Counted from the stretch's first letter, positions 36,864-54,844 are shown. The stretch is 64,000 nucleotides of DNA from an uncultured Elusimicrobia bacterium (GCA_964358485.1 CAYHPY010000001.1:81382-145381), one strand, 5' to 3'. Numbers and translations are program-made. The notes: generated by a model not told the origin, from the sequence alone.

Positions 36864-36867
36864 TATT

Positions 36868-36932
36868 GGTGCCAGGTATCCACTTTCTTAACATTCTTCC
36901 GGGGAAAGTTTAGAAAGTGGATACCTGGCACC
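36868..36932. mobile_element. MITE-like 65-bp element with perfect 21-bp terminal inverted repeats (copy 1)
   Basis: ggtgccaggtatccactttct...agaaagtggatacctggcacc flanking a 23-bp core (taacattcttccggggaaagttt). Sits 4 bp after the OMP stop codon; a near-identical copy is at 54774-54838. Confidence 0.55.
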
Positions 36933-36936
36933 GAAA

Positions 36937-37860
36937 TTAGAACTTGCGGCGGTGGCGGCGGACGATCATCAGCGCCGAGGCGGCCGCGAGGCCGGCCAGG
37001 AGCAGGACCGCGAAGATTTTGGCGGGACCCTTGATGGCGGGGGCGAAGGGCAGGGGATGTTCGAGCACGCGGAAGGAGGCGAGGGTGTAGGAGAAGTCGC
37101 CCTCCAAAACGGGGAAATCCGCCAAATCGGCGATGCAGGTGATCAGGTAGCCCCGCTCCAGTCCCGGGACGATGATCGAGATGACCTTGAGGTCGTGGAC
37201 CTTGGTGGTCTCGGGCGTGATGAGGATTTTGGTCGTCCCCGAAAGGATGGTTTTGTAGACCGCCGGAATGACGACGACGGTTTTCTGCCCCGTGCCCGTC
37301 ACCCGTAGGGCCTTGAGCCGGTCGATTTCGATGATTTGGGCGCTCTGGCGGGAGTAGCCCTCGAACACGCCTTTGAGTTCGGACTCCACGATCTTCGCGG
37401 CCCGGTCCTTGAGCCGATCGGTCATCGGGGGAACCGGGGTTTCGGTGACCACCACGTTGAGCACGGGGGGCATCCGGCCCTCCGGGGCGGATTTGAGCAT
37501 GGAGAAAGCGTCGACAAACCGGCCTTTTTTATTTCCGGGGAAGGAGTGGTTCCAGCCGGGGGCCGGGGAAATGGCGAAGCCATAGGCCTGGTTTTTATGA
37601 GCTTCGTCGGGGATCGGTAGGCCCCGCCGCGGCGTGAAGAGCCAGAGCCCGAGGCTGACCGCCGAGACTAAGACCAGAATCCAGCCCCAAGGCCGGCTTT
37701 TGCGATCGAGCGGGCCGGTGGCCTGGGTGGAGGACGGAGCCGCGTAGCCGCCGTACTCGCGTTTGGCTTGGACCTCTTTCCAATGGGAGAAATTGATCTG
37801 ACAGCCCGCGCAATCCTTGGCCTTGTCCGGCTGTTTAAGTCCGCAATTGGGGCATTCCAT
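36937..37860 (-). CDS. membrane protein with N-terminal zinc-ribbon (CPNC...CAGC)
   Basis: MECPNCGLKQPDKAKDCAGCQ zinc ribbon, a TM helix (WILVLVSAVSLGLWLF), a periplasmic-type domain, and a C-terminal TM (IFAVLLLAGLAAASALMIV). Confidence 0.5.
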   Translation of the reverse strand: MECPNCGLKQPDKAKDCAGCQINFSHWKEVQAKREYGGYAAPSSTQATGPLDRKSRPWGWILVLVSAVSLGLWLFTPRRGLPIPDEAHKNQAYGFAISPAPGWNHSFPGNKKGRFVDAFSMLKSAPEGRMPPVLNVVVTETPVPPMTDRLKDRAAKIVESELKGVFEGYSRQSAQIIEIDRLKALRVTGTGQKTVVVIPAVYKTILSGTTKILITPETTKVHDLKVISIIVPGLERGYLITCIADLADFPVLEGDFSYTLASFRVLEHPLPFAPAIKGPAKIFAVLLLAGLAAASALMIVRRHRRKF

Positions 37861-40725: not shown

Positions 40726-41292
40726 GTGAAAATGAAAATTCTATTCCTCGTCATCGCTTTCCTCCCCGTGTTCGCATCGGCGGGAAATCCTATCCAAAAA
40801 ACAAAGCGGAATGCGCTACAGAAAAAATTTGACTCTTTGGTGTTGCGCCTGAATTCTATTCCGGGAGGCAAGTGCCTGAGTCAGGAAGTCGCTTCGTCTT
40901 TCGAGGTTCCGGAGCATTGGGAGTGCCGTTTGGAGGAAGTCGATGCTGAGTCCACCACCGATGGGATGGTGCATAACGCGAATCTCCTGGTGGAAATCTC
41001 TACGACAGCGGCCGAACGGGGAGCCAGGCGATTAGTGTTTTTTTCAATGGAGTGGGGTTCGGATCGCAGAAGCGTGGAATACTACACTTTCATCACTTCC
41101 CTGGACGGCGAACTGGTCAAGGCCTTGGAAACGCACAGCAAACGGGACGAAAAAGGCCAAGGGGTGAGGGGCTCGGCCATCGACATCCCCCAGGACCTAA
41201 AAGCCAAAGAAATCCGCGACCGCTATAAGCACGAACTCGAGTTCTGGCTCGACGGCAAGTACCGCAAGAAGCAGAAGCCGAAAAAGAACTAG
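40726..41292 (+). CDS. secreted hypothetical protein (left boundary paralog of the secreted-protein island)
   Basis: Signal peptide MKMKILFLVIAFLPVFASA. The C-terminus RYKHELEFWLDGKYRKKQKPKK matches the C-terminus of the protein at 52754-53350 ([18 protein letters not shown]). Confidence 0.5.
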   Translation: MKMKILFLVIAFLPVFASAGNPIQKTKRNALQKKFDSLVLRLNSIPGGKCLSQEVASSFEVPEHWECRLEEVDAESTTDGMVHNANLLVEISTTAAERGARRLVFFSMEWGSDRRSVEYYTFITSLDGELVKALETHSKRDEKGQGVRGSAIDIPQDLKAKEIRDRYKHELEFWLDGKYRKKQKPKKN

Positions 41293-41433
41293 CCGCCGCC
41301 CCCTTACGGATCGATGGTTTATTTACCATCAATCCCAGAGGGACCCAAGGGGATGCCCAAAAAGGCCGGCGGGAAGTAGGCCAATTCGCGCCCTTGACAG
41401 TTCCAGCCTCCGGCCCTATCCTATAGCGATCCC

Positions 41434-41853
41434 GTGACCCTATCCCGCCCCTGGCGTTTCGCCCTCGCGGGCGGCCTCTTCTTGGCCGCCGCGCCCATCC
41501 TTCAAGCGGGCACGGATTTTCTCAATTTCAGGGAGACCAGCGTTCCTCAGGAGGTCCGGGCCGATTTGGAGACAATCGGCTACGTCTTTGAAGAAAGATT
41601 CGGAGGCGTTCGAAAACCCCGTGAATGGCCCTTGGAAAAGGCTGAATATCTCGCCTTCCTGGAGCCTCACGACCTGAAAGCCAAGCCCATCGATGAAAGT
41701 CTTCGTGTTTCCTTGCTCCTTCGCGGCTACCGAATGGATCAGGACGCGGGACGCATACTGACCGGGGAGCCCGCCCGGCCACGAACTTGGAGATCCAAGC
41801 CTTCAAGAAATCCATGGAGGACGCCCAGCGGGCCAACAGCCTGGAGCGACTGA
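41434..41853 (+). CDS. secreted N-terminal ORF, possibly the frameshifted 5' part of the downstream HExxH gene
   Basis: Signal peptide MTLSRPWRFALAGGLFLAAAPILQAG. It overlaps by 67 nt, in another frame, the 41787 ORF, which lacks both a signal peptide and an ATG start. Confidence 0.4.
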   Translation: MTLSRPWRFALAGGLFLAAAPILQAGTDFLNFRETSVPQEVRADLETIGYVFEERFGGVRKPREWPLEKAEYLAFLEPHDLKAKPIDESLRVSLLLRGYRMDQDAGRILTGEPARPRTWRSKPSRNPWRTPSGPTAWSD

Positions 41854-43118
41854 CCCAATTCCTATCCGAGCAGAACCCCGATAGGCCGCTGCACTTCAAT
41901 CATTGGATGAAAGCGAAAGGGATGGGAGCGGAGGGCCCTCCCGGGTTGGTCGGCGCCCTCCAGGATCCCAACCAAAAAGCGGGCGAGCTGCTGTCAACCG
42001 CCCGCCAGGCTCAATTGGAAGGCGCCCGCGTTTTCGACGGCAAGAAATCCCTGCCTGACTGGGACAAGGACACTTTGCCGGTGAAGCCTGATTGGGGCGG
42101 GGCAAGCCGGGTGCCCTACGCGGGGGATGTGGAGCGGCGCTTGGGCTCCCTCTTAAGCGCCTCGGCGGAGACCCACCTGGCCAAGAACCCGGCGGGCCGT
42201 GAACTGCTGGACCGCTTCCGCGGCAAGGACGGCAAGGTGGAGCTGCCCGCCTTCCTCATCCTGCCGATCAACGACTCCATGGACGCCGCCTACTCGGCCC
42301 CCAACAAGGCGCTGATCTTCAATCAGACCTACGTCGTCAGGGGGATGACGGAAAAACTTCCCGAGAGGAAGCGATCGGAGCTCCGCCGGGAGCTGGCCGA
42401 CCCCAAGAAGTTCGCGGAGTATCTGTTGGCGCATCCCGAGGCCCGGGACGCCTTCATCGCCGGCCACGATGTTCAGATGGTCCACGAGTTGACCCACGGG
42501 TTTCAGGACCGCCTGGGGACGTTGTCGGAGGAGCAGGAGCGGGGAAACCTGCCGCAGGGGACCATCATCGAGAAGGAGACGGAGGCCTTTTTCGCGCATG
42601 CCAAGTACCTGCATCACAAATTGGTGCAGGATCCGGAGTCTGTGAGGGACAATCCGAGACTTGAGGAGTATGCCGAATTCATTAAAAGCGCTGAGGTTTT
42701 GGAAAAGATTGTTTCCGATGCTTACACGCAGAATTATCCGACGGGGGCGGCGACATTCCCTACCCTGAAATCCATCCAGAGGGAACGGATCAGCCAGGCC
42801 CGAATTTTAATAGGAGAGAGCGCGTACGAGAAAATCGGTGAATTGAAGCTTCGAGGCTTGCAAGCCGGCATGAAGGAATTGGAGGCCGAAGAGAGCCGAG
42901 TTTCGGCCAGGATGCTAAAATTCATGAATGACGAATACCCAGCGATTCAAATGGAGGGGCGAAGGCGATTGGCCGCCCTGTATATCGTGAAGGCGCGGCT
43001 TGAGCCGGAATGGTATAAACGGGATGGGTATTTAAATTCCGCCAAAGACTTGGTTTCCGATGAAAAATCTTTGCGCCTGATTGCGAGCTTGCGCACGGAG
43101 CCGCCCGAGGACGAATAA
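41787..43118 (+). CDS. HExxH-motif protein (putative zincin-like metallopeptidase)
   Basis: Contains VHELTHGF (HExxH). A TTG start is inferred (the first ATG is at 41814). Its 3' third is duplicated at 43936-44211. Confidence 0.5.
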   Translation: MEIQAFKKSMEDAQRANSLERLTQFLSEQNPDRPLHFNHWMKAKGMGAEGPPGLVGALQDPNQKAGELLSTARQAQLEGARVFDGKKSLPDWDKDTLPVKPDWGGASRVPYAGDVERRLGSLLSASAETHLAKNPAGRELLDRFRGKDGKVELPAFLILPINDSMDAAYSAPNKALIFNQTYVVRGMTEKLPERKRSELRRELADPKKFAEYLLAHPEARDAFIAGHDVQMVHELTHGFQDRLGTLSEEQERGNLPQGTIIEKETEAFFAHAKYLHHKLVQDPESVRDNPRLEEYAEFIKSAEVLEKIVSDAYTQNYPTGAATFPTLKSIQRERISQARILIGESAYEKIGELKLRGLQAGMKELEAEESRVSARMLKFMNDEYPAIQMEGRRRLAALYIVKARLEPEWYKRDGYLNSAKDLVSDEKSLRLIASLRTEPPEDE

Positions 43119-43645
43119 TGAGAAAGACTGTTTTCGCCATTTTTGCCGCCTTTTTCTCGGCCTGCGCCAATAAAACATCCGTTCCCGGCATGGAGTTGGC
43201 CGTTTACGAAGACCCATCGGGCCTATTCTCTTGTGAGGGTCCCGCCGATTGGCGCGTTCACGAACATCGAACGCATAAAGGTTTTGTCCAATTTTTCGGC
43301 CCGGCGGGAGACGCGCCCTTCGGAGCATCTATCGGCATCCATTACGTCCATCCCGATAATCCCGGTATTTTTACCCCGATCGACAAGTATCCCGCGCTGA
43401 TGTCATCCGGGGCCGTGCCGCGCGAGCGCCTATGGCGCGGCCAAAAAGTCATCGAGTTCGACTACCTAAAAAAGCCGTTCGAGATCCACGGCAAGGTCGA
43501 GCCGGGAATGCGGAAGCATTTAAGCGTGCTCATCCCCGCCAAGACCGGCTATTTCGTCCTCGACCATTCGGTCAACGAGAAATACCACCACGAGACTAAG
43601 CACGTGTTTGAGACCGTGGTCAACAGCTTTCGCCCGAAAGACTAA
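43118..43645 (+). CDS. lipoprotein, paralog A
   Basis: Signal peptide plus lipobox-like Cys (MRKTVFAIFAAFFSACANK). About 88 percent aa identity to 44211-44735; start is coupled to the upstream stop (TAATGA). Confidence 0.6.
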   Translation: MRKTVFAIFAAFFSACANKTSVPGMELAVYEDPSGLFSCEGPADWRVHEHRTHKGFVQFFGPAGDAPFGASIGIHYVHPDNPGIFTPIDKYPALMSSGAVPRERLWRGQKVIEFDYLKKPFEIHGKVEPGMRKHLSVLIPAKTGYFVLDHSVNEKYHHETKHVFETVVNSFRPKD

Positions 43646-43649
43646 ATTC

Positions 43650-43790
43650 AGCGTTTCGACTTGCCGCGGCGCCGTTTTTCCGGGGCTCTTGAGGCGCCCA
43701 GTGCATCCTGGAGCCGCCGCCGCCGTATCCTCGGCCTCGACCACAGCGCGTCTTCGGCCCCGGAAGGCGGCCTGCAGGCGCCGGAGCAAT
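43650..43790 (-). pseudogene. remnant of SEC-C-domain gene (internal deletion in duplicated copy A)
   Basis: The minus-strand fragment LRRLQAAFRGRRRAVVEAEDTAAA matches the C-terminal part of the intact gene at 44732-45799. Confidence 0.4.
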
Positions 43791-43807
43791 GGGGGCGCGG
43801 AATTAGG

Positions 43808-43850
43808 GAAAGCTTAAGTAGGGCGGTGCCAGGTATCCACTTTCTGCATT
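43808..43850. repeat. 45-bp junction repeat containing a solo MITE TIR
   Basis: agggaaagcttaagtagggcggtgccaggtatccactttctgca carries the 21-bp TIR (43825-43845). The same repeat ends duplicated copy B at 45838-45880. Confidence 0.6.
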
Positions 43851-43935
43851 CCCTACCCTGAAATCCATCCAGAGGGAACGGATCAGCCAGGCCCGAATTT
43901 TAATAGGAGAGAGCGCGTACGAGAAAATCGGTGAA

Positions 43936-44211
43936 TTGAAGCTTCGAGGCTTGCAAGCCGGCATGAAGGAATTGGAGGCCGAAGAGAGCCGAGTTTCGGC
44001 CAGGATGCTAAAATTCATGAATGACGAATACCCAGCGATTCAAATGGAGGGGCGAAGGCGATTGGCCGCCCTGTATATCGTGAAGGCGCGGCTTGAGCCG
44101 GAATGGTATAAACGGGATGGGTATTTAAATTCCGCCAAAGACTTGGTTTCCGATGAAAAATCTTTGCGCCTGATTGCGAGCTTGCGCACGGAGCCGCCCG
44201 AGGACGAATAA
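43936..44211 (+). pseudogene. duplicated 3' fragment (91 codons) of the HExxH gene
   Basis: Nucleotide sequence 43851-44225 is near-identical to 42755-43130. It encodes only the C-terminal 91 aa (MKLRGLQAGMKELEAE...), with no upstream gene body. Confidence 0.5.
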
Positions 44212-44735
44212 TGAGAAAGACTGTTTTCGCCATTTTTGCCGCCTTTTTCTCGGCCTGCGCCAATAAAACATCCGTTCCCGGCATGGAGTTGGCCGTTTAC
44301 GAAGACCCTTCGGGCCTATTCTCTTGCGAGGGACCCGCGGATTGGCGGGTTTATGAGCACAAAGGCGATAAAGGCCATGTCCAATTTTTCGGACCGGCGG
44401 GAAACTCGCCCTTCGGAGCCTCCATCGGCATACATCACTTGCACCCCAGCGAAGCCTGGTTTGTCCCGATCGACAAGTATCCCGCGCTGATGTCGTCGCG
44501 GGCCATTCCTAGGGAGCGCATGTGGCGCGGCCAAAAAGTCATCGAGTTCGATTACCTAAAAAAGCCGTTCGAGATCCACGGCAAGGTCGAACCGGGAATG
44601 CGGAAGCATTTAAGCGTGCTCATCCCCGCCAAGACCGGCTATTTCGTCCTCGACCATTCGGTCAACGAGAAACACCACCACGAGACGACGCAGGTATTCG
44701 ACGCCGTCGTCAACAGCTTCCGTCCCAAGGATTAA
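44211..44735 (+). CDS. lipoprotein, paralog B
   Basis: The same signal/lipobox N-terminus as 43118-43645, with a diverged central region (YEHKGDKGHVQFFGPAGNSP...HHLHPSEAWFVP). Confidence 0.6.
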   Translation: MRKTVFAIFAAFFSACANKTSVPGMELAVYEDPSGLFSCEGPADWRVYEHKGDKGHVQFFGPAGNSPFGASIGIHHLHPSEAWFVPIDKYPALMSSRAIPRERMWRGQKVIEFDYLKKPFEIHGKVEPGMRKHLSVLIPAKTGYFVLDHSVNEKHHHETTQVFDAVVNSFRPKD

Positions 44736-45799
44736 GTGCCGCGCCGCGGACCCCCGCGGCGCCGTTTTTTCGGGGCTTTGGAGGCGCCCAACGCTTCCAC
44801 GAGGCGCCGAGCCCGGTCCGCCAACTCCGCCGGGACCGGCAGGCCCAGGGCTTCCCGCATCCAGATGATGGAGGGGATGTTCAACGAGCCCGATAGTGCG
44901 TCGGGGGCGCGCGCGAGCGAGGACTCGTATTCCTTGAGCAGGTCGGCGAGAAACCTCCTCCCTTCTGAGTTGCCGGCGGCTTGGCGGGGGGTCCGGCCTC
45001 CCAAAGCGGGCACGGGTTCGTCCGGCCAGCGCCTTTCCCTTTCCTGGAGGGCTCCCGCCAGGGCGCTTCGGGGATCCGCCGCCGCCGTATCCTCGGCCTT
45101 GACCACAGCGCGTCTTCGGCCCCGGAAGGCGGCCTGCAGGCGCCGGAGCAATGGCGGCGCGGAATTGAGGAACGCCTGCCATGAAAGGCCGGGCTCATGG
45201 ACCTTGGCCATGCGGTAGGCGCCCTCTACCTCAAACTTGAGTTCCAAGCGCTCCAGAGGGGAGAACACGACGGCTTCGCCCCAGGCTTCCGCGGGTCCGC
45301 CCTGGCGCCTCAGGCGCATCCCCAAGACGTCCCAAACCGCCGCTTGGCGCGAGGACGACACGTCGGCCACATCGAACTTCTCGCCGGAGAAGAGATCCTG
45401 GACGGCCAGGCCCGTCCCGGGACGGACCTCAAGCACCTCGACGATCGTGACGGCCGTGGACTTATGCTTGGCCAACTCGGAGCGGTCGGAAGCGCTCAAG
45501 TCCTCGGCGCGCTCGGCCTCGAAGCGCTCCAGCAAGGTCCGTCCGCCCCGGCGGCGGCCGGTGATCAGCCAGTCCAAAAATAAGCCGAAACGGGGTCCCT
45601 CCTTGACCGGGCCGGCCTCTCCGTGTTCCTCCCAGGCGGCCTGCAGTTCGGCCTTGCCTGCCGCCTCGAGCGCGAAGGCGGCGATCTCCTCGGTGAGGGA
45701 CGTGAGGCGCGGCGTCGGGGCGCCGTCTTTCAGGCAGCAATTCTTATATTTCTTCCCGGAGCCGCAGGGGCAAGGCTGGTTTCGTCCGATTCTGCCCAT
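44732..45799 (-). CDS. SEC-C metal-binding motif protein
   Basis: N-terminal QPCPCGSGKKYKNCC (SEC-C/YecA-type Zn motif). The start is trimmed to MGRIGRN at 45799; 4-bp overlap with the paralog B stop. Confidence 0.6.
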   Translation of the reverse strand: MGRIGRNQPCPCGSGKKYKNCCLKDGAPTPRLTSLTEEIAAFALEAAGKAELQAAWEEHGEAGPVKEGPRFGLFLDWLITGRRRGGRTLLERFEAERAEDLSASDRSELAKHKSTAVTIVEVLEVRPGTGLAVQDLFSGEKFDVADVSSSRQAAVWDVLGMRLRRQGGPAEAWGEAVVFSPLERLELKFEVEGAYRMAKVHEPGLSWQAFLNSAPPLLRRLQAAFRGRRRAVVKAEDTAAADPRSALAGALQERERRWPDEPVPALGGRTPRQAAGNSEGRRFLADLLKEYESSLARAPDALSGSLNIPSIIWMREALGLPVPAELADRARRLVEALGASKAPKKRRRGGPRRGT

Positions 45800-45837: not shown

Positions 45838-45880
45838 GAAAGCTTAAGTGGGGCGGTGCCAGGTATCCACTTTCTGCACT
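45838..45880. repeat. 45-bp junction repeat containing a solo MITE TIR (second copy)
   Basis: agggaaagcttaagtggggcggtgccaggtatccactttctgca; TIR at 45855-45875. Confidence 0.6.
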
Positions 45881-45896
45881 TTCCCCCGGGCCGATC

Positions 45897-46886
45897 CTAC
45901 CGCGCCAAATCGTCAAAGGCGGCTTGCGCGCGGCCATTGACGTAGTCCAGTTCCTTCTGCTCCACCCCCTCCATTTTCGCGACGGCTTCCATGAGTTGGG
46001 AGAGGTTGAAACGCATTAGAACGCAGGCCTCCCCGCTTTCCAGCTTCCAGGTCGCGCTTGGAGGGGTCTCCTGGAGAGCGGCGTCCAACGGCTTGCGCCA
46101 GGCCTTCATGGCCCAGGGTCGGGGACTTTCAGAGGCTATTTTCATTTCCTCGGGAGTCGGCGCGGGCATGTAGGGAGGGGACATCCAAGAGGCGGCGGCG
46201 ATATGCGCTCTCGCGAGCTTTCCGATTTCATCGCGAGCCATTTCCCGCCCATCGCGCCACGTCGCGGAGCTCGAGACGCTGCCAAAGCCGACTCCCTCGA
46301 AAAAGCGGCCTTCGGCTGTTTTGACGGCAGCCGAACCCCGTTGCGCCCAGGCCGGCTCGGGACCTAATTGGACGGCGGAAGAATCAAAAGCGATGAGGGC
46401 GTTATGGCGGTAGTATTGTTCGATCTTGTGGTCCAGGTTTCCCTGGGCCAGCACCGTTTTCACCGCTTCAGTGAGGGGAATCCGGACCAGGATGGATGGA
46501 GTTCCGGCAGGGGACTTCCACCGGGTCGTGGGGGGAGTTTTCTTGGCCAGGAGGAAAAGAGGGTCTTGCCAGCGAGGAGGTTTTCGCGGGATCCACTGCT
46601 CTTGGTCCTCATTAGGAAGATTGCCTGCGGTCGTAGACTCCATGTAAATGCGGGCCATGGTGTCGAAATGTTTTTTCGCCAAATCGTAGGCGGCCAAGCG
46701 GGCGGCTTCTTCGGTTTTACCGACGCCCTCGAAATGATCGCCTTCGGCCGTTTTGACGGCCGCCGTGCCCCGCTGGACCCAGGCGGGCACGGTTTCCGCC
46801 TCCCGTGCCCGGGGGCCCGCGCATGCCATGAGCGACAAAAAAATGGGCGGGGACAGAACTCTAAAGAAATCAATTCGGCGGTTCAT
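45897..46886 (-). CDS. lipoprotein with two tandem LPP20-like repeats
   Basis: Signal plus lipobox (IFLSLMACAG). Internal duplication: PAWVQRGTAAVKTAEGDHFEGVGKTEE versus PAWAQRGSAAVKTAEGRFFEGVGFGS. Confidence 0.5.
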   Translation of the reverse strand: MNRRIDFFRVLSPPIFLSLMACAGPRAREAETVPAWVQRGTAAVKTAEGDHFEGVGKTEEAARLAAYDLAKKHFDTMARIYMESTTAGNLPNEDQEQWIPRKPPRWQDPLFLLAKKTPPTTRWKSPAGTPSILVRIPLTEAVKTVLAQGNLDHKIEQYYRHNALIAFDSSAVQLGPEPAWAQRGSAAVKTAEGRFFEGVGFGSVSSSATWRDGREMARDEIGKLARAHIAAASWMSPPYMPAPTPEEMKIASESPRPWAMKAWRKPLDAALQETPPSATWKLESGEACVLMRFNLSQLMEAVAKMEGVEQKELDYVNGRAQAAFDDLAR

Positions 46887-47079
46887 CGGGTCTCATTGTA
46901 GCAGACGGCGGCCGCCGGGACCGGCAGGCCCAGTACCCCCGCGCCCCCTTACGGATCGATAGCTTATTTACAATCAATCCCAGAGGGACCCAAGGGGATG
47001 CCCAACCGCAGGCCCAAACTCCCGGGGCGGGGTTTCCCGAGGGCGACGCCCCCCGCCGGTTTCTTGCTACCATTCGCTC

Positions 47080-47628
47080 ATGAAGACCGAAGTCCGGCGC
47101 CTGAATCCCGAGACTCGCTGGGACTTCATGTCGCTGCGCGCCTACCCGGGCTGCGATTGGTGCTTTTGCGTGGCCTGGCATGTCCCGATCTGGGACGGCT
47201 GGAAGGAGCGGACCGCGGCGGAGAATCGGGCCCTGCGGGAGAATCTGTTTTCCCTGGGCCGCTACGACGGCTACCTGCTTTATGTGGACGGTCGGCCGTC
47301 GGGCTGGTGCCAGGTGGGGCCCCTGGCCTGGTTTCCCAAAATGGTCGGGCAATTCGGCCTGGAAGGGGAGCCCGAACAGACTCCGGTGGTGGGCTGCCTG
47401 GAAATCATCCCGGAGTATCGAAAACGGGGCTTGAGCCGGGTTCTCTTGGACGCGGCGCTCGCGGACTTGGGCCGCTCCGGCGTCCGGCGGGTCCTGGCCA
47501 TTCCCCGGGCCGGCCGGCACGAGGACGGAAAGGTTTGGACGGGGCCCATGGCGCTGTTTGAGTCGAGGGGTTTCAAGCCCCTGCGCGAGGCGGGGGAGCG
47601 GGTGGTGATGGAGTTCCTCGTTCCCTAG
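47080..47628 (+). CDS. GNAT family N-acetyltransferase
   Basis: 182 aa with acetyl-CoA-binding-like region LEIIPEYRKRGLSRVLLDAAL. Its 3' end is duplicated at 50100-50237. Confidence 0.65.
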   Translation: MKTEVRRLNPETRWDFMSLRAYPGCDWCFCVAWHVPIWDGWKERTAAENRALRENLFSLGRYDGYLLYVDGRPSGWCQVGPLAWFPKMVGQFGLEGEPEQTPVVGCLEIIPEYRKRGLSRVLLDAALADLGRSGVRRVLAIPRAGRHEDGKVWTGPMALFESRGFKPLREAGERVVMEFLVP

Positions 47629-47671
47629 ATTCCCCCTGCCCTGGCGTGTTCGGGGCGGAGGTGTTATCCTT

Positions 47672-48526
47672 ATGAGGATGCCAAAAAGGGGCCTTTGGGC
47701 GTTGGCGCTTTTATTCCTCCTTCCGGGAGCATGGGCGGCTCCACCCACCGATGAGGAGCTTGAGGCCGAGGACCGCAAGGAATTGGTCACGCCGGCGCCT
47801 CCGGATTTTAAGCCCGAGGACCAGGGAAAGAAGTTGAAGTTGACTCTTATTCCCCGGGACGCCGAAATCCACAGGGGGGAGGCCTTTTGGTTTCGCCTCG
47901 AAGTTCAAAACATTGGACGGACCCCTGTCCCTTTGAATGCGGAATGGTCATTTTTCAAGATCGGGTACGGTGAAGCGCTGGAATATCGATTCCTGGTGAC
48001 TCCTCCCAAGGGAGTTGAGAGGGAGGAGCCGGTCAATTTTTTCCCCACAATGGGGTATCGGTATTTTTCCCCAATCGTTCCCGGTGGCGATAAAATGTCT
48101 CCGGAGGAAAGGGCAGAGGCCTCTCGCCGTATTGAGGCGGAAATGCCATACAAGCGAGCCCGGGGATTCGGGCTTCGGATGCACTTGGCCCCAGGGGAGA
48201 CTCTCCGCACCCGCCCCTGGAAGCATCTGGAGCTAATCCAGGCATACAAGCGGTTGCGGCAGGGAGAAGATCCGTTTCCCCCTGTTCCCGGGGAATTTCG
48301 GGAAGTGGATTTCCACTCCATGGAATTCGATAAAGTCGGAACCTATCGAATTCGAATAGTTTTCACGGCTGATCCCTGGCTCAAGGCTCCGGATGGGGAA
48401 GAGATTGAGGAGGGCATCCGGCTTGGCCTTAGTCGGGAGTGGCAGATGGAGCAGTATAAGGCAAGACTTCGGGAATCCCTTGGCCGTTTCGAGTCGAACG
48501 TCGTTGAGGTTGAAGTCGTTCCGTGA
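47672..48526 (+). CDS. secreted protein, cassette copy 1 gene A
   Basis: Signal peptide MRMPKRGLWALALLFLLPGAWA. The first 49 aa are identical to 50281-51135, then about 65 percent identity; the C-terminus VVEVEVVP is shared. Confidence 0.6.
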   Translation: MRMPKRGLWALALLFLLPGAWAAPPTDEELEAEDRKELVTPAPPDFKPEDQGKKLKLTLIPRDAEIHRGEAFWFRLEVQNIGRTPVPLNAEWSFFKIGYGEALEYRFLVTPPKGVEREEPVNFFPTMGYRYFSPIVPGGDKMSPEERAEASRRIEAEMPYKRARGFGLRMHLAPGETLRTRPWKHLELIQAYKRLRQGEDPFPPVPGEFREVDFHSMEFDKVGTYRIRIVFTADPWLKAPDGEEIEEGIRLGLSREWQMEQYKARLRESLGRFESNVVEVEVVP

Positions 48527-50055
48527 TCGCGGGCTTGCTGGGTTCCTTCCTGCTGATTTTCTCCGGAGGCTTGGCCATGGCCGCCCCATGTCAGCCCCAA
48601 ATCCGGGACCGCCTATCTGCTTGCGAGCCGCCCAAGGCGGAACGCGATCTTCTTTTGGCGGTGGCTCGGAGAGTCGTCGAAGCCCATGGGATGTTTCAGA
48701 AATCCTTATCCCGGGAAGCCGCGTTAAGGAAAATGGCCGCAGGGGGCGAAGATTTGGACCTTCTTGGTCAATGGAAGCTGAGTTTTATCGAAATGGAATG
48801 GGAGCGCAAGCGGATGGAGTTATATTCGGAGCGCGCGCTGTCCGCGGCGCAAAAAATATACGGGATTGTTCCTCCGGTCGTTTCTGGAAACGTCGCCAAT
48901 GGCCCCATGGCGGGCCATCCGGTCAGTTGGAGTCCGCAGTTTTTGCGTTCCCGGGAAAACTACCGCCTTGGGGTTCGACCCGACGGCTCGGATTATTATA
49001 TGGAAACAGTCTTTGATCCCGGAGATGGTGGAATAACGGATGAGGACGGCCGGGTTAATATTGGCATCGGATCGTTTTATTTGGCAGCCGCGATGGGGGA
49101 TACCCTCTTTTTGGCCTTGACGGTACACCACGAAGGGTTTCACTTCTGGGAGCTATTGACTCGAGGTTGGGACACTCATGAGGCCGGGGAAAGTCGCGCA
49201 TGGGGCGAGACAGTCAAGGCGGCCGAGGCCATGGGGGCTGGAGAGGATGCGAAAAAGGCTGTCCACCATATCATGGCGGAAGTTGAGGAGGCGGCGCGGC
49301 AAGATGAATTGAATCCACCGTTCCATAGCGAGAAAATTCAGTTCGATGTGGCCTTGGACTACGAAAGAACCCAAATTGATTCCCATATTGCCGCAATGGA
49401 GCGAAAGGCATTGGACGCCCGGCTGGAATCAATGCGGGCCGAAGCCGCGGGGAAATCCGAGGAGGCCAAGAAGGCCGGAATGTTGGCCCGCTTGGAGGAG
49501 GAGGCCGCCCGCTGCGGGTTCAAGTTCCTTCACCCGGGCAATTGGAATCGATACGGGTTCTATGAAGAGGAGGTTCCGGGGAATAAGCACTTGGGGGCGC
49601 ACTATTATTTCGCCAGAGGCCTCACTTGGGATGAATTTCGGACGGTCCTATTTCTGGCGAGGGCTTGCCTGGATGAGGGGCTTAATGAGCCCTGCAACGA
49701 CGGCTTGGACATCATCAATCGTCGATGGGGTAAGGACGGCTTTGGGGAAGGGTGGGAACTGGCGGTGGAAGGCGGCCAGGGCGGGCAAAAGGCGTGCCTC
49801 GAATACCTTCAGGGACGGATCAAACCCCCCATGAACGTTCGCGGCATCGATAAGGCGGCCTCTCGGGCCTGGAAAGACCTCCGAAAGCGATGGAAGCGGG
49901 AGGGGGAGGCCGCCATGAGGCGCCACCGGCAACAGCAGGCGGAGGCCGAACGGCCGCGAAAACGCCGGGATTGGGAGGCTGATGATTCCGACGGGGAGAG
50001 CCGCTGCGGCAATGCGAATTCCGAAACCGGAATCGTGGGTTGCCGCTCCCGCTGA
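48523..50055 (+). CDS. secreted HExxH-motif protein, cassette copy 1 gene B
   Basis: Signal peptide, two Cys near the N-terminus (APCQPQ...SACEPPK), and an HExxH motif (TVHHEGFHFWEL). The C-terminal tail ...RCGNANSETGIVGCRSR is shared with 51132-52703. Confidence 0.6.
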   Translation: MIAGLLGSFLLIFSGGLAMAAPCQPQIRDRLSACEPPKAERDLLLAVARRVVEAHGMFQKSLSREAALRKMAAGGEDLDLLGQWKLSFIEMEWERKRMELYSERALSAAQKIYGIVPPVVSGNVANGPMAGHPVSWSPQFLRSRENYRLGVRPDGSDYYMETVFDPGDGGITDEDGRVNIGIGSFYLAAAMGDTLFLALTVHHEGFHFWELLTRGWDTHEAGESRAWGETVKAAEAMGAGEDAKKAVHHIMAEVEEAARQDELNPPFHSEKIQFDVALDYERTQIDSHIAAMERKALDARLESMRAEAAGKSEEAKKAGMLARLEEEAARCGFKFLHPGNWNRYGFYEEEVPGNKHLGAHYYFARGLTWDEFRTVLFLARACLDEGLNEPCNDGLDIINRRWGKDGFGEGWELAVEGGQGGQKACLEYLQGRIKPPMNVRGIDKAASRAWKDLRKRWKREGEAAMRRHRQQQAEAERPRKRRDWEADDSDGESRCGNANSETGIVGCRSR

Positions 50056-50237
50056 TCGGGCCGTCCTTTCCTCCCCGGTTCTGGCCCTTACTCCTGGCTT
50101 TGTCGGCTCCCGCCCGGGCCGGCCGGCACGAGGACGGGACAGTTTGGACGGGGCCCATGGCGCTGTTTGAGTCGCGGGGTTTCAAGCCCCTGCGCGAGGC
50201 GGGGGAGCGGGTGGTGATGGAGTTCCTCGTTCCCTAG
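50040..50237 (+). pseudogene. chimeric junction ORF: signal-peptide-like 5' part fused to a duplicated GNAT 3' fragment
   Basis: The 3' part (AGRHEDGTVWTGPMALFESRGFKPLREAGERVVMEFLVP) duplicates the GNAT C-terminus. The 5' part (SFPPRFWPLLLALSAPARAG) resembles the signal region of the gene at 52754. The junction is at the shared cccgggccggc. Confidence 0.5.
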
Positions 50238-50280
50238 ATTCCCCCTGCCCTGGCGTGTTCGGGGCGGAGGTGTTATCCTT

Positions 50281-51135
50281 ATGAGGATGCCAAAAAGGGG
50301 CCTTTGGGCGTTGGCGCTTTTATTCCTCCTTCCGGGAGCATGGGCGGCTCCACCCACCGATGAGGAGCTTGAGGCCGAGGACCGCAAGGAATTGGTCACG
50401 CCGGCGCCTCCGGATTTTAAGCCCGAGGGCGAAGAGCGGAAGCTGAAGCTGACGCTCATTGCCCGGGATTCGAAAATCCGCAAAGGCGAAAATTTTTGGT
50501 ATCGCCTCGAGGTCCAAAACGTCGGTCCTCGAGCCATTCCTTTTAAGGCGAAGTGGTCTTTTTTTAAGGTTGGATACGGAGAGGCGTTGAATTACCGTTT
50601 TCTGGTGACGCCTCCCGGCGGGGTCGAATTGGATCCGCCAATTCGGTTCATGTTGTCGATGGGTAGGGCCTATCTTGACCCTTTTGTTCCCGGTGGGGCA
50701 AAAATGTCGGTCGCCGAGCGGGCCGAAGCGGCTCGTAAAATTGCGGACGACATTCCCCGAAAAGAGGCGCGGGGTTTCGGGCTTCTGGTCAATTTGTCTT
50801 CGGGCGAGACTCTCCGCACCCGTTCCTGGGAATACTTGGACCAAGGCCGCGCCTATCGGCGGCTGAGACAAGGTGAGGATCCATTTCCTGCAACCCCGGG
50901 AGAATTTAGGGAATTGGCTCTCGCTTCGTTTAAATTCGATAAGGTCGGCACTTATCGTATCCGAGTGGAATTCGCGGCCGATCCCTGGCTTGTGGCTCCG
51001 GATGAGGAAGAGATTCAGGAGGGAATTGAGTTTGGCCTCACCCGTGAATGGCAAATGGAGCAGTATGAAGAGAGGGTCCAAAGATCCCTCGGCCGATTCC
51101 AATCCAATATCGTCGAAGTCGAAGTCGTTCCGTGA
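50281..51135 (+). CDS. secreted protein, cassette copy 2 gene A
   Basis: Paralog of 47672-48526. The upstream 190 bp (50238-50427) is identical to 47629-47818. Confidence 0.6.
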   Translation: MRMPKRGLWALALLFLLPGAWAAPPTDEELEAEDRKELVTPAPPDFKPEGEERKLKLTLIARDSKIRKGENFWYRLEVQNVGPRAIPFKAKWSFFKVGYGEALNYRFLVTPPGGVELDPPIRFMLSMGRAYLDPFVPGGAKMSVAERAEAARKIADDIPRKEARGFGLLVNLSSGETLRTRSWEYLDQGRAYRRLRQGEDPFPATPGEFRELALASFKFDKVGTYRIRVEFAADPWLVAPDEEEIQEGIEFGLTREWQMEQYEERVQRSLGRFQSNIVEVEVVP

Positions 51136-52703
51136 GAGTCGGGCTCCTCGCCCTTCTGTGGCTTATTTTCCCCGTTGGCCGGGCGGCTGCCGCCCCCTGC
51201 GATCTCGATCTTCAGAAACGCGTTTCGGTTTGTGAGCCGCCTAAGGAGGAACGCGAACGACTGATGAAAATGGTGCGGCGAGTCGTCGAGGCGCACGGGA
51301 TTTACCAGGATTCTTGGTCTCGGGAAATCACTCTGCGGGAAATGGCCGCCGGGAAGGAGGATTTGAATCTTCTGGGTAAATGGAGGCGGAGTTTGATCGA
51401 TGTTGAATGGCAACGGAAGAGGATGGAGTTGTATGCGGGGCGTGCTTTATTGGCGGTTCAGAGAATTTACGGAATTGTCCCCACCGCCATTTCCCGAGAA
51501 GTCTTCAATGGCCCGTTTGCGCGCCATCCTGCACGGTGGGAGCCGCGCTTCTTGCATTCAAGAAAAATCGGCGAGGGCGAATATCAGGCGGCGTATCGGT
51601 CCGAGAAGTGTCCGGATGGCTCGGAATATTTTTTAGAAACGAGATTCGGGTCTGGGGATGGTGGAGTAACTGACGAGGACGGGCAGGTTAATATTGGAAT
51701 TGAGGCGTTTTATTGGTCGGTCAGATATGGAAGCCCGCTCCTTTTGGCGTTGACGGTGCACCATGAGGAAGTCCATTTCTGGGAACTCGTGTCCAGCGGA
51801 TGGGACACGCATGAGGACGGGGAGAAGCGCGTGTGGGGAAAGACGCTCGCGGCGGCGGAGGCCATGGGAGCCGATGCTCTCATGAAGAATGACATTGAGC
51901 AACAAATGCTGAATTTTGAAAAGGACGCGGAAGGCGGGGGGGATGGAGTGGCGGCGTCGAGTTCCCCGTTTCATAGCGAGAATATTCAGTTCGATGCGGC
52001 CTTTGACTTCGAGAAAGCCTTGTTGGATTCTCAGATGGCGAATCTGGAACGCGGGGCCTTATCCCGGCGGCTGGAGGATTTGAGGGCCGAAGCCGCGGGG
52101 AAATCCGAGGCGGCCAAGAAGGCCGGGATGTTGACACGCTTGGAGGAGGAGGCCGCCCGCTGCGGGTTCAAGTTGCTTCACCCGGGCAATTGGGATCGAT
52201 ACGGGTTCTATGAAGAGGAAGTTCCGGGGAATAGGCACTTGGGGGCGCACTATTATTTCGCCAGAGGCCTCAATTGGGATGAATTTCGGACGGTCCTTTT
52301 TCTGGCGAGGGTTTGCCTGGACGAAGGGCTGGGGGAGCCTTGCAACGACGGCCTGGACATCATCAATCTGCGATGGGGAAAGGACGGCTTCGGGGATGGG
52401 TGGGAGCTGGCGGTGGAAGGCGGCCAGGGTGGGCAAGAGGCGTGCCTCGAATACCTCCAGGGGCGGCTCAAACCCCCCATGAGCGTTCGCGGCATCGACA
52501 CGGCGGCCTCGCGGGCCTGGAAAGACCTCCGAAAGCGTTGGAAGCGGGAGGGGGAGGCCGCCATGAGGCGCCACCGGCAGCAGCAGGCGGAGGCCGAACG
52601 GCCGCGAAAAATCCGGGATCGCGACACTGATGATTCCGACGATGAGCGCCGTTGCGGCAATGCGAATTCAGAAACCGGAATCGTGGGTTGCCGCTCCCGC
52701 TGA
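51132..52703 (+). CDS. secreted HExxH-motif protein, cassette copy 2 gene B
   Basis: Paralog of 48523-50055; HExxH present as TVHHEEVHFWEL. Conserved N-terminal Cys pair and C-terminal tail. Confidence 0.6.
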   Translation: MRVGLLALLWLIFPVGRAAAAPCDLDLQKRVSVCEPPKEERERLMKMVRRVVEAHGIYQDSWSREITLREMAAGKEDLNLLGKWRRSLIDVEWQRKRMELYAGRALLAVQRIYGIVPTAISREVFNGPFARHPARWEPRFLHSRKIGEGEYQAAYRSEKCPDGSEYFLETRFGSGDGGVTDEDGQVNIGIEAFYWSVRYGSPLLLALTVHHEEVHFWELVSSGWDTHEDGEKRVWGKTLAAAEAMGADALMKNDIEQQMLNFEKDAEGGGDGVAASSSPFHSENIQFDAAFDFEKALLDSQMANLERGALSRRLEDLRAEAAGKSEAAKKAGMLTRLEEEAARCGFKLLHPGNWDRYGFYEEEVPGNRHLGAHYYFARGLNWDEFRTVLFLARVCLDEGLGEPCNDGLDIINLRWGKDGFGDGWELAVEGGQGGQEACLEYLQGRLKPPMSVRGIDTAASRAWKDLRKRWKREGEAAMRRHRQQQAEAERPRKIRDRDTDDSDDERRCGNANSETGIVGCRSR

Positions 52704-52753
52704 CCGAGCCGTCCTTTCCTCCCCGGTTCCGGCATTGCTACAATCAATCCGGC

Positions 52754-53350
52754 ATGGCATTCTCCTCGGTTCTGGCCCTTCTCCTGGCTTTGACGGCCCC
52801 CTCCCGGGCCGGCGAGGCGCCCGCCGTCCCCACCTCCGCCTCCGCTCCGGCGAAGGCCGAGGTCAAGGCCTCCACCGCCGCCGCCAAGCCGGGGGCCGTT
52901 CCGGGGATGAAGAAGTTCGTCGCCCATGTCCTGGAGGAGGGGATGTCGGAATCCCTGCCCTCGGCCTTGGTCGCCGCCTATGAGCTTCCGGAGGGCCTGG
53001 ACGGAAGGATTTTGCAGGTCACTCCGCAGGAAACCACCGACGGCCTGCTCCACGCTTTCAACGCCCTGGTTCTCGAAGAAGAGCCCTCCAAGGTCCAGCG
53101 CTTGATCCTGCTGGCCCGCAAGCAGGCGGGCGACGGCCGGAACACCGAATTCCACGCCTTCATTTGCGCTCCCGACGGAACCTTGATCAGGGTGGTCCGC
53201 TCCGCCTGGAAAAACGACCCGGAGGGCCAGGCGATGGGCGCCTCGGCGTCGCATCGTCCGTTGAGCGCGGCGTCCCCGGCGGTCAAAGCTCTTTTCCGCC
53301 ACGAGCTGGATTTCTGGCTCAAGGGCCGCTTCCGGAAAAAGCAGGAATAA
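52754..53350 (+). CDS. secreted hypothetical protein (right boundary paralog of the island)
   Basis: Signal peptide [22 protein letters not shown] (start trimmed to 52754). The C-terminus [18 protein letters not shown] is like that of 40726-41292. Confidence 0.55.
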
Positions 53351-53351
53351 G

Positions 53352-54770
53352 ATGGCCCGCCAATCCGCCTACGACGTGGTCGTCATCGGCAGCGGGCCGG
53401 GCGGCGAGGGCGCGGCCATGAAGTCGGTGAAAGCCGGGCTCTCCACCGCGGTCGTGGAATCCTTCCGGGAAGTCGGGGGAGCCTGCACGCACCGGGGGAC
53501 CATCCCCAGCAAGGCCCTGCGCCAAGCCGTTCAGCAATTGGCCGAGTTTCGGCGCAATCCCTGGTATAAGCGCGCGGCCGCCCGCTTTTCCGTCGATTTC
53601 CCCGATCTCTTGAAGGAAGCCGACCGGGTGATGTCGGCCCAGGTGCGCCTGCGGACCTCGTTTTACGAGCGCAACGGGGTCAAGATTTTGGAAGGCCGCG
53701 CCGCCTTCGGCGGGAAAAACGAGATCCGGGTGGAGCATCCGGAGCACGGCGCCCTGGTCCTGAAAGCGGCCAATGTCGTCCTGGCCATGGGCTCCCGTCC
53801 TTACCGTCCCCCGGAGGTGGATTTTTCCCATCCCCGCGTGCTCGACAGCGACAAGGTCCTGGGCCTCAAGGAAACCCCGGCGTCGATCGTGATCTTCGGG
53901 GCCGGCGTGGTCGGCTGCGAGTACGCCTCCATTTTCCGGAGCCTGGGCTCGAAGGTAACCTTGGTCAACACCCGGGAGAAGCTTTTGACCTTCCTGGACG
54001 ACGAAATCATCGACGCCTTGAGCTACCACCTGCGCGACCAGGGCGTGATCCTCCTGCACAACGAGGAGCATGCCAAGGTGGAGGCCGACGAGAAGGGAGT
54101 TTCCTTGCATCTGAAATCCGGGAAAAAGATTCGGGCCGAGTGCCTGCTCTGGGCCAACGGCCGGACCGGCAACACCGATGGCATGGGGCTCGAGTCCCTG
54201 GGCGTCAAGCTCGACTCCCGGGGCAACGTCCAGGTGGACGAGAATTACCGGACCGCGGCCCCGCATGTCTTCGCGGTGGGCGACGTGGTGGGTTTCCCGG
54301 CCTTGGCCTCGGCGGCCTACGACCAGGGGCGCTTTGCCGCCACCCAGATCGTGGAGGGCCGCTGCGACGAGCGCTTGGCCCGGGACATCCCCGCCGGAAT
54401 CTATACTTTGCCGGAGATTTCCAGCGTCGGGCGCACCGAGCGGGAGCTCACGGCGGCCAAGGTGCCCTACGAGGTTGGCCATGCCTTTTTCCGGAGCCTG
54501 GCCCGGGCCCAGCTCATGGGCGAGACCGTGGGCATGCTCAAGCTTTTGTTTCACCGGGACACCCTGGAGATTTTGGGCGTGCACTGCTTCGGCTCCCAGG
54601 CCGCCGAGATCATCCACATCGGCCAGGCGATTTATTCCCAGAAGGGCCCGGCCAACTCCCTGCTCTACTTCATCAACACCACCTTCAATTATCCCACCAT
54701 GGCCGAAGCCTACCGCGTCGCCGCGCTCAACGGCTACAACCGCCTCAAAGGCATCGCCCCCAAGGCCTAG
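53352..54770 (+). CDS. sthA: soluble pyridine nucleotide transhydrogenase
   Basis: Near-collinear match to E. coli SthA/UdhA: [57 protein letters not shown]. Confidence 0.9.
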
Positions 54771-54773
54771 GAT

Positions 54774-54838
54774 GGTGCCAGGTATCCACTTTCTTAACAT
54801 TCGCCCGGGGAAAGTTTAGAAAGTGGATACCTGGCACC
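54774..54838. mobile_element. MITE-like 65-bp element with perfect 21-bp TIRs (copy 2)
   Basis: ggtgccaggtatccactttct taacattcgcccggggaaagttt agaaagtggatacctggcacc; begins 4 bp after the sthA stop. The core differs from copy 1 by 2 nt. Confidence 0.55.
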
Positions 54839-54844
54839 AATGAT

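Follow-up and report, generated by a model that had tools for sequence, protein, structure and literature searches.

Recombination and a mosaic tandem array of a predicted secreted gene pair in an uncultured Elusimicrobia bacterium

How does a bacterium come to carry two adjacent copies of a gene cassette that are almost identical at their ends, with middles as diverged as those of copies in other organisms? The question is raised by a locus in a stretch of 64,000 nucleotides (nt), here called the window, from an uncultured Elusimicrobia bacterium (GCA_964358485.1, CAYHPY010000001.1:81382-145381). The cassette consists of gene A, encoding a predicted Sec-exported protein, and gene B, encoding a predicted exported protein with an HExxH motif. 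The original prediction described a tandem duplication of this cassette, and offered gene conversion at the boundaries or diversifying selection as the cause of its uneven divergence. Repeats, alignments and a junction found in three assemblies bear out the duplication. The mosaic was made by recombination, not by selection for change; anciently diverged core types are flanked by ends of recent common ancestry. Coordinates are positions in the window and all genes of the locus are on the + strand. The genes and repeat units are as follows.

47080-47628, + strand: GNAT acetyltransferase gene (Pfam Acetyltransf_1, E 1.2e-5), with the duplication breakpoint at codon 142.
47504-50112, + strand: repeat unit 1, 2609 nt; the GNAT 3' end, a 43-nt leader, A1, B1, the B 3' untranslated region (UTR) and a relic of the D 5' end.
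47672-48526, + strand: gene A1, 284 amino acids (aa); predicted Sec-exported protein with a predicted immunoglobulin (Ig)-like beta-sandwich.
48523-50055, + strand: gene B1, 510 aa; predicted exported protein of an uncharacterised HExxH family, with HEGFH at 49129-49143 and a conserved Glu223.
50040-50237, + strand: junction open reading frame (ORF), TTG start, 65 aa; what is left of the D signal peptide, joined to the C-terminus of GNAT.
50113-52813, + strand: repeat unit 2, ~2700 nt; a relic of the GNAT 3' end, the leader, A2, B2 and the D 5' end as far as the microhomology described below.
50281-51135, + strand: gene A2, 284 aa, separated from B1 by a 225-nt spacer.
51132-52703, + strand: gene B2, 523 aa, with a GTGA overlap with A2 and HEEVH at 51762-51776.
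52754-53350, + strand: gene D, 198 aa, predicted to be exported, with the right breakpoint (52803-52813) within its signal-peptide region.
53352-54770, + strand: soluble transhydrogenase gene sthA (NCBIfam PRK05249).

The tandem duplication spans 47504-52813. A repeat finder reported a direct repeat, 99% identical, between 47504-47803 and 50113-50412, with other repeat families spaced 2633-2648 nt apart. Divergence is not uniform along the unit. The expected contrast between near-identical ends and diverged cores was present, in three regimes and not two. In unit 1 coordinates, identity is 98.7% across 47504-47819, 66.4% across 47820-49435 and 92.0% across 49436-50055. These regimes correspond to the tracts listed here.

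47567-47819 (equal to 50176-50428), + strand: identical tract of 253 nt; the GNAT tail, the Shine-Dalgarno sequence GGAGGTG and A codons 1-49.
47820-49435, + strand: variable core of unit 1; A codons 50-284 and B codons 1-304, 66% identical to 50429-52083, with dS (defined below) saturated and dN 0.2-0.4.
49436-50055, + strand: C-terminal part of B1, comprising a Cys-rich domain, a charged linker and a Cys-loop tail; a homogenised tract, 92% identical to 52084-52703.

The leader identity noted earlier (47629-47818 with 50238-50427) is exact, and belongs to the full run of 253 identical nt, which may be partly an assembly product. When the sites of the alignment, which has 23% mismatches, were shuffled 10,000 times, no shuffle reached a run of this length; the longest was 56. 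On the left the change is abrupt; mismatches in the core begin at 47820, and seven of the ten positions following the identical run are mismatched. This boundary falls at A codon 50, where the conserved N-terminal segment gives way to the first predicted beta-strand of the sandwich. The right boundary, placed near 49436 by maximum chi-square, is at B codon ~304, in the variable charged or coiled linker that joins the HExxH domain to the Cys-rich C-terminal domain. At the protein level, A1 and A2 are identical at 201 of 284 residues (71%). As predicted, the first 49 residues, which make up the signal peptide and a conserved DRKELVTPAPPDFKPE segment, are the same and the remainder is 64.7% identical. 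Translation likewise confirmed HEGFH in B1, HEEVH in B2 and near-identical B tails. The two B proteins share 357 of 523 residues and both tails read RCGNANSETGIVGCRSR.

The age of each tract was assessed by comparing the two units with each other and with related cassettes from other organisms. Two contigs provide the latter comparison: L001, a Logan contig with the order A'-B'-D'-sthA', and L005, an NCBI metagenome contig (GCA_040960315.1, JBFOMO010085085.1) with the order B-A-(B remnant)-D. "Between organisms" means the window against either contig. Rates of synonymous (dS) and nonsynonymous (dN) substitution were calculated by the Nei-Gojobori method; pS is the proportion of synonymous differences.

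Core, all pairs within the genome and between organisms: dS from 1.35 to saturated (pS 0.63-0.76), dN 0.21-0.33.
B C-terminal domain (205 codons), B1 against B2: dS 0.20, dN 0.05.
B C-terminal domain, between organisms: dS 0.78-1.26, dN 0.14-0.17.
A codons 1-49, A1 against A2: dS 0, dN about 0.
D, window against L001: dS 0.69, dN 0.13.
sthA, window against L001: dS 0.60, dN 0.05.

Within the cores, 56% of amino acids are common to B1 and B2, and each has as many or more in common with L001 or L005 (56-62%); the core tree is an unresolved star. The cores are also more diverged than the flanking genes D and sthA of L001. For A2, the nearest relative is P0008, a partial protein from a JGI metagenome, with which it clusters at 99% bootstrap. 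Conversely, B1 and B2 form a clade (98.5% bootstrap) in the C-terminal domain only. Within this delimited tract the paralogues are closer to each other than to their orthologues, synonymous sites included, which is the pattern of concerted evolution. Selection does not account for the difference. Across 50-codon windows of the core dN/dS was 0.09-0.43, and it exceeded 1 in none of them; at ~0.2, dN/dS in the cores is like that of the C-terminal domain when organisms are compared. Hence, the cores are older, and not faster evolving or less constrained. They are old lineages under purifying selection. Thus, of the two causes originally offered for the uneven divergence, conversion or recombination is supported by end dS values of 0 and 0.20 against more than 1.5 in the saturated core, and diversifying selection, for which dN/dS per domain had been suggested as the check, is not.

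Base composition also distinguishes the cassette. The proportion of G or C at third codon positions (GC3) in the unit 1 core is 0.60-0.61, compared with 0.84-0.87 in the flanking genes. Over the window, L001 and L005 together, the core has GC3 of 0.57-0.65 against 0.84-0.89 in the flanks, and the B C-terminal domain has 0.69-0.76. In a more distant cassette, on the contig L009, GC3 is 0.77 compared with 0.93 in host genes. The low values could reflect foreign origin or GC-biased conversion.

How the two units came to lie in tandem is recorded at their edges. Alignments place the same short sequence at both breakpoints and at the join between the units.

47504-47514, 50113-50123 and 52803-52813, + strand: 11-nt microhomology CCCGGGCCGGC, respectively in GNAT (left breakpoint), at the junction and in D.
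50056-50237, + strand: junction relic; the B 3' UTR, then a fragment of the D 5' end that meets the final 125 nt of GNAT at 50113-50123.

The array is head-to-tail, and its chimera of the D 5' end and the GNAT 3' end is joined exactly at CCCGGGCCGGC, as fits a duplication by microhomology-type illegitimate recombination. The original reading of the ORF at 50040-50237 as a chimera of the GNAT 3' end and D, formed at this shared sequence, was thus upheld by alignment. The ORF itself is probably a non-functional relic. We conclude that illegitimate recombination, at a GC-rich microhomology of 11 nt shared by the GNAT 3' end and the D 5' end, gave rise to the array. Both relics have since changed. 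In the D-derived part, 42 nt between GGTTCYGGC repeats are missing, a private deletion that takes out the D start codon, and 5 of 38 nt are mismatched. The GNAT-derived part has 4 mismatches, all in its first 63 nt. Overall, the junction relics are 0-13% diverged from GNAT and D.

The relics bear on the order of events. We give about an even chance to a history in which the array is recent and was followed by exchange of its middle segment between pre-existing types. The junction and the two-unit array would date to ~0.1-0.2 substitutions per site ago and be younger than the split from the L001 and L005 relatives. This age is suggested because the relics, presumably neutral, have diverged by only 0-13%, like the B 3' tract (8% of nt, dS 0.20) and far below the cores. 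Next, homologous recombination, using the conserved ends as anchors, would have replaced the middle segment of one unit with that of another type, with breakpoints at the domain boundaries, A codon 50 and B codon ~304. The leader tract would have been homogenised last, or partly collapsed by the assembler. On this evidence a contiguous middle block, made up of the body of A and the N-terminal domain of B, appears to exist as several ancient types in related bacteria, and the two units to hold two of them. The junction relics are far less diverged than the cores, which need not have diverged in situ once the duplication had occurred.

The best surviving alternative is an ancient tandem duplication that diverged in place. 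Here, conversion would have kept the ends and the adjacent relics similar while the cores drifted past the identity threshold for recombination. We regard this as quite possible, though less likely than not. The same mosaic, dS contrast and C-terminal clade are expected from it. Divergence in the relics peaks at the breakpoint (13% in the D relic and 6% in the first 63 nt of the GNAT relic), as fits conversion tracts that end at the edge of homology. In addition, the ends are intrinsically more conserved between organisms, with nt identity of 77-88% against 62-70%. The B-to-A adjacency in L005 means that arrays may be old in the clade. That junction has neither a GNAT nor a D relic, however, which suggests an independent duplication, and the L001 and L005 cassettes are not recognisably orthologous to type 1 or type 2. 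An ancient duplication also requires non-coding relics to have been refreshed repeatedly, to their last homologous bases, over more than 1.5 substitutions per site, and the 42-nt deletion in the relic is still unrepaired.

Several considerations weigh against the preferred history of recent duplication and later exchange. The order of events is not provable, and an ancient duplication with ends and relics refreshed by conversion fits most of the data equally well. With core dS saturated and GC3 low, the statement that the cores are older than the species split rests on contrasts in pS and dN, with no reliable clock. The close homologues number four, two of them on short partial contigs, and hence positional orthology is weak. 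Finally, repeat collapse during assembly could affect the identity of the leaders, the apparent conversion sites in one contig (L013, below) and even the copy number.

Could the array be an artefact, made when an assembler joined the alleles of two strains, each with one cassette, end to end or resolved a repeat wrongly? We consider this very improbable. In its favour, all of the evidence comes from short-read metagenome assemblies with ~4-5x coverage, and contigs end at repeat edges; a second A1/B1 core in L003 and a probable collapse of the leaders, both described below, also favour it. Other assemblies, made independently from this population in the groundwater of Hainich well H52 (0.2 um fraction), supplied contigs for comparison. 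One of them, L003 (ENA, replicate R3), has the order GNAT-A1-B1-junction. A second, L013 (ENA, replicate R2), has the order B1 3' end-junction-A2-B2-D-sthA. A third, L002, covers the A2 core, B2 and D onward; it starts at window position 50414, 14 nt before the identical tract ends. The chimeric junction, with its private deletion and single-nucleotide polymorphisms (SNPs), was thus recovered in three assemblies (the window, L003 and L013) from two replicates. A junction with its own deletion and SNPs cannot come from an 11-nt overlap in a de Bruijn graph. Hence, the array is real. The unit order in the window is supported by L013, which independently joins the B1 3' end, the junction, A2-B2 and D. 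Furthermore, a linear chromosome that enters the locus by GNAT and leaves it by D must have the arrangement GNAT-(A1B1-J)n-A2B2-D, where J is the junction and n is at least 1.

Two features of the contigs leave copy number and leader identity less certain. In L003 the junction is followed by another A1/B1 core, with every base the same as in that contig's first copy. It reflects either a loop in the assembly graph or a variant with three units, so that A1B1 is present once or twice. The leaders present a second difficulty. Four sites (47651, 47687, 47714 and 47731) form two haplotypes. Haplotype V1 (T,C,A,C) accompanies the A1 core in L003 and L004, and haplotype V2 (C,A,T,A) accompanies the A2 core in L013, L014 and the window. 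In the window, the leaders of both units read C,A,T,A. Most simply, the two leaders would truly differ at the four positions (~98.4% identity) and were probably, in part, collapsed in the window assembly. Alternatively, the SNPs are a strain polymorphism and the copies were homogenised within each strain, which would be active gene conversion. L013 also has B1-type bases at three sites in the 3' part of B2 (52580, 52611 and 52612). They are due to conversion polymorphism or to assembly mixing, and are a hint of ongoing exchange. More generally, repeat tracts reported as 100% identical in short-read metagenome-assembled genomes (MAGs) should not be taken at face value.

Recent duplication followed by positive selection that rapidly separated the secreted cores, with the ends held by constraint, is barely credible: both products are predicted to be exported, the variable part takes in the body of A together with the half of B that is putatively catalytic, and pairwise averages could hide positively selected sites, but the synonymous sites of the core, saturated at pS 0.55-0.80, make its divergence old and not fast, dN/dS stays at 0.1-0.4 in every 50-codon window, like the between-organism C-terminal domain, and within 10 nt a run of 253 identical nt gives way to ~35% mismatch, as is usual at recombination breakpoints.

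What, then, do the recombined genes encode? A and B appear from their arrangement to form an operon of two Sec-exported proteins that are translationally coupled. B1 has a GTG start that overlaps the A1 stop codon as GTGA. The B1 product recorded by NCBI (P0001, 420 aa) instead begins at Met91 and is without the signal peptide and Cys pair (48523-48792) that are conserved in the family, and the GTG at 48523 is likely to be the true start. Protein P0002, on the ENA contig L002, is identical to B2. A scan for promoters and terminators found no more than in shuffled controls, and no tRNA or Rfam element was found in the window.

The pairing of A with B extends beyond this lineage. In five distant loci (L009, from an Elusimicrobiota MAG, L010, L011, L012 and L019) an A-like gene overlaps the start of a B-like gene by 4 nt, as also occurs in L001 and twice in the window. 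The relative on L009, which bears the Elusimicrobiota label, is 34% identical. Loss is asymmetric. In the terminal unit of L005 (2250-2290) A is kept and B is deleted in frame to eight codons, MTVGCRSR*. A is alone in L006 and L007, and B is truncated after ~140 residues in L016 and L017. Conversely, B without A was seen in none of the 8 loci with upstream sequence available, a small sample. L015 was uninformative, the contig ending within the B-like ORF. Gene D was considered as a third member of the module and rejected; it is absent from the distant A-B loci and is a neighbour only in this lineage. Two of those loci have a third exported gene after B (L011 1993-2796 and L012 2675-3337). These two genes are similar to each other (LGI[AV]DIT) and have no counterpart in the window.

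Relatives of B are distant and few. A word-indexed search returned only B1 itself, B2 and one other protein, and pattern scans for B in GTDB genomes and JGI metagenomes found no relative. A HMMER profile search of 1.84 billion cluster representatives gave 183 distant relatives at E <= 0.001, with 104 at E <= 1e-10; most relatives among the matches listed are 450-600 aa. We aligned 30 diverse members to define the features of the family. Shared features are a signal peptide, an N-terminal Cys pair (PC...PCTP) and conserved residues W136, P138, T172, G176, P194 and A198. Residues H203, E204, H207 and E223 are each at least 90% conserved among the 30 and give the pattern HExxH-x15-E, which is gluzincin-like; one member, P0019, lacks the HExxH motif. 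The C-terminal part has four conserved Cys residues and a charged linker, and many members have a C-terminal Cys loop.

B had no sequence match in Pfam, NCBIfam, PADLOC, PHROG or PDB. Scanning ten isolated HExxH domains at E values up to 10 gave faint, non-recurrent matches to Tox-MPTase2 (E 0.18) and Peptidase_M91 (E 0.2), in one member each. An AlphaFold2 model of B, made with B1, B2 and P0003 as input, was unusable (pLDDT 41). At that low confidence it has strands, a helix with the HExxH motif and then a helix at 216-236 that holds E223. The proposal that B is an HExxH zincin is therefore favoured by a motif that is near-invariant in the family, and is without a match to any peptidase family. 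That B is a secreted zinc-metallopeptidase-like protein is plausible but unproven.

Protein A could be modelled with more confidence (pLDDT 78, pTM 0.71). As the original prediction had raised, the model is an Ig-like beta-sandwich, here with helical insertions. Its structural matches, which agree with a beta-sandwich of the Ig-like or CARDB-like kind, include the Bacillus subtilis intracellular proteinase inhibitor, an AsaP1 chain and macroglobulin domains, and Foldseek returned nothing significant with the model. Specific similarity to the proteinase inhibitor or to the AsaP1 propeptide was considered and not accepted as such. Neither A nor D gave a significant family match in sequence searches of Pfam, NCBIfam, PADLOC, PHROGs and PDB.

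The organisation of the pair suggests a role for A. The two genes are predicted to be translationally coupled with A first, and A persists where B is lost and not the reverse. Hence, A would be a cognate binding partner of B, most likely protective or inhibitor-like; the asymmetry of loss fits an obligate folding helper less well. If A and B are cognate, then the co-varying middle segment would be the module for their interaction or specificity. A fuller proposal is that A-B is a polymorphic cognate system, with B a secreted zincin-like effector, A its type-specific protective or recognition partner, and ancient specificity types, defined by the middle block, maintained among related groundwater bacteria and shuffled between conserved anchors. 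We think this unlikely. If it held, a single cell could possess two or more types by way of a tandem array. No toxin, immunity or defence domain was detected in A or B with PADLOC, PHROG or Pfam. Other points also tell against a role of this kind. Peptidase function is proposed for B with no significant family match and an unusable model. The A fold is a generic beta-sandwich with hundreds of equally good matches, and implies no function. The asymmetry of loss rests on a handful of loci.

Other repeats are found close to the array. A second tandem duplication is located 3.5 kb upstream, at 42754-44940, with a period of 1093 nt. Identity is 100% for ~470 nt and is then a mosaic of 60-100%. Each unit has the last ~365 nt of an ORF for a 443-aa protein (41787-43118, HELTH motif, no Pfam match) and a gene for a 175-aa lipoprotein-like product, the copies of which are at 43118-43645 and 44211-44735. 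The independent scaffold L003 has a 100-N gap exactly at this duplication. A relationship between B and the 443-aa HELTH protein was rejected (hhalign probability 0.2%). A paralogue of D, ~30% identical to it, is at 40726-41292. A 64-nt direct repeat, 95% identical, follows this paralogue (41297-41360) and recurs before GNAT (46942-47005). A palindromic intergenic element of the repetitive extragenic palindromic (REP) kind, GGTGCCAGGTATCCACTTTCT..., is present in several copies, at 54773-54839 (33-nt arms), 45855-45889, 43805-43848 and ~36865-36940. On the - strand, 45897-46886 encodes a 329-aa exported protein with an internal duplication. The DNA repeats (46288-46360 and 46720-46792) are 79% identical and the motif PAW.QRG.AAVKTAEG occurs twice in the protein.

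The locus is a clean natural example of recombination building a mosaic tandem array, with a dated junction, homogenised ends and diverged middles in one uncultured bacterium. Attention is also drawn to a gene pair not described before, in which a predicted Ig-like exported protein is translationally coupled to a predicted exported HExxH-x15-E protein. If the middle block is a specificity module, then the pair would be a new case of type polymorphism in secreted proteins.

Three kinds of known system invite comparison. Tandem duplication at microhomologies, by a RecA-independent route that leaves a short junction, is reportedly treated by Reams and Roth in their account of bacterial gene duplication and amplification. 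Duplications of this kind tend to be unstable, with identical units. The present array resembles them in its 11-nt GC-rich join between unrelated genes and in the chimeric junction ORF left behind. It differs in that the locus has persisted until the junction decayed (a 42-nt deletion and up to 13% divergence) and in that its units are not identical.

In the staphylococcal agrB-D-C and Bacillus comQXP pherotypes, a hypervariable segment extends across adjacent genes between conserved flanks. Contact-dependent inhibition (CDI) and Rhs polymorphic toxin systems have arrays of orphan cassettes. Here too a contiguous variable block runs from the later part of one gene into the early part of the next, several old types occur among related bacteria, the flanks are possible anchors, and loss of the downstream gene leaves its upstream partner in place. 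Unlike in those systems, no signalling peptide, toxin or immunity domain was detected, and two complete units are in tandem in one genome.

Concerted evolution, in the terms in which it is outlined for duplicated prokaryotic genes, is the case of paralogues that are closer to each other than to their orthologues (PMC6053082). The B C-terminal domain and the A 5' end agree with this; both are closer within the genome, in sharp tracts with synonymous sites homogenised. The difference is that only the ends are affected; divergence across the middle 1.6 kb matches that of copies from other organisms. Taken together, the locus documents well how a known evolutionary process has acted on a secreted gene pair that had not been described.

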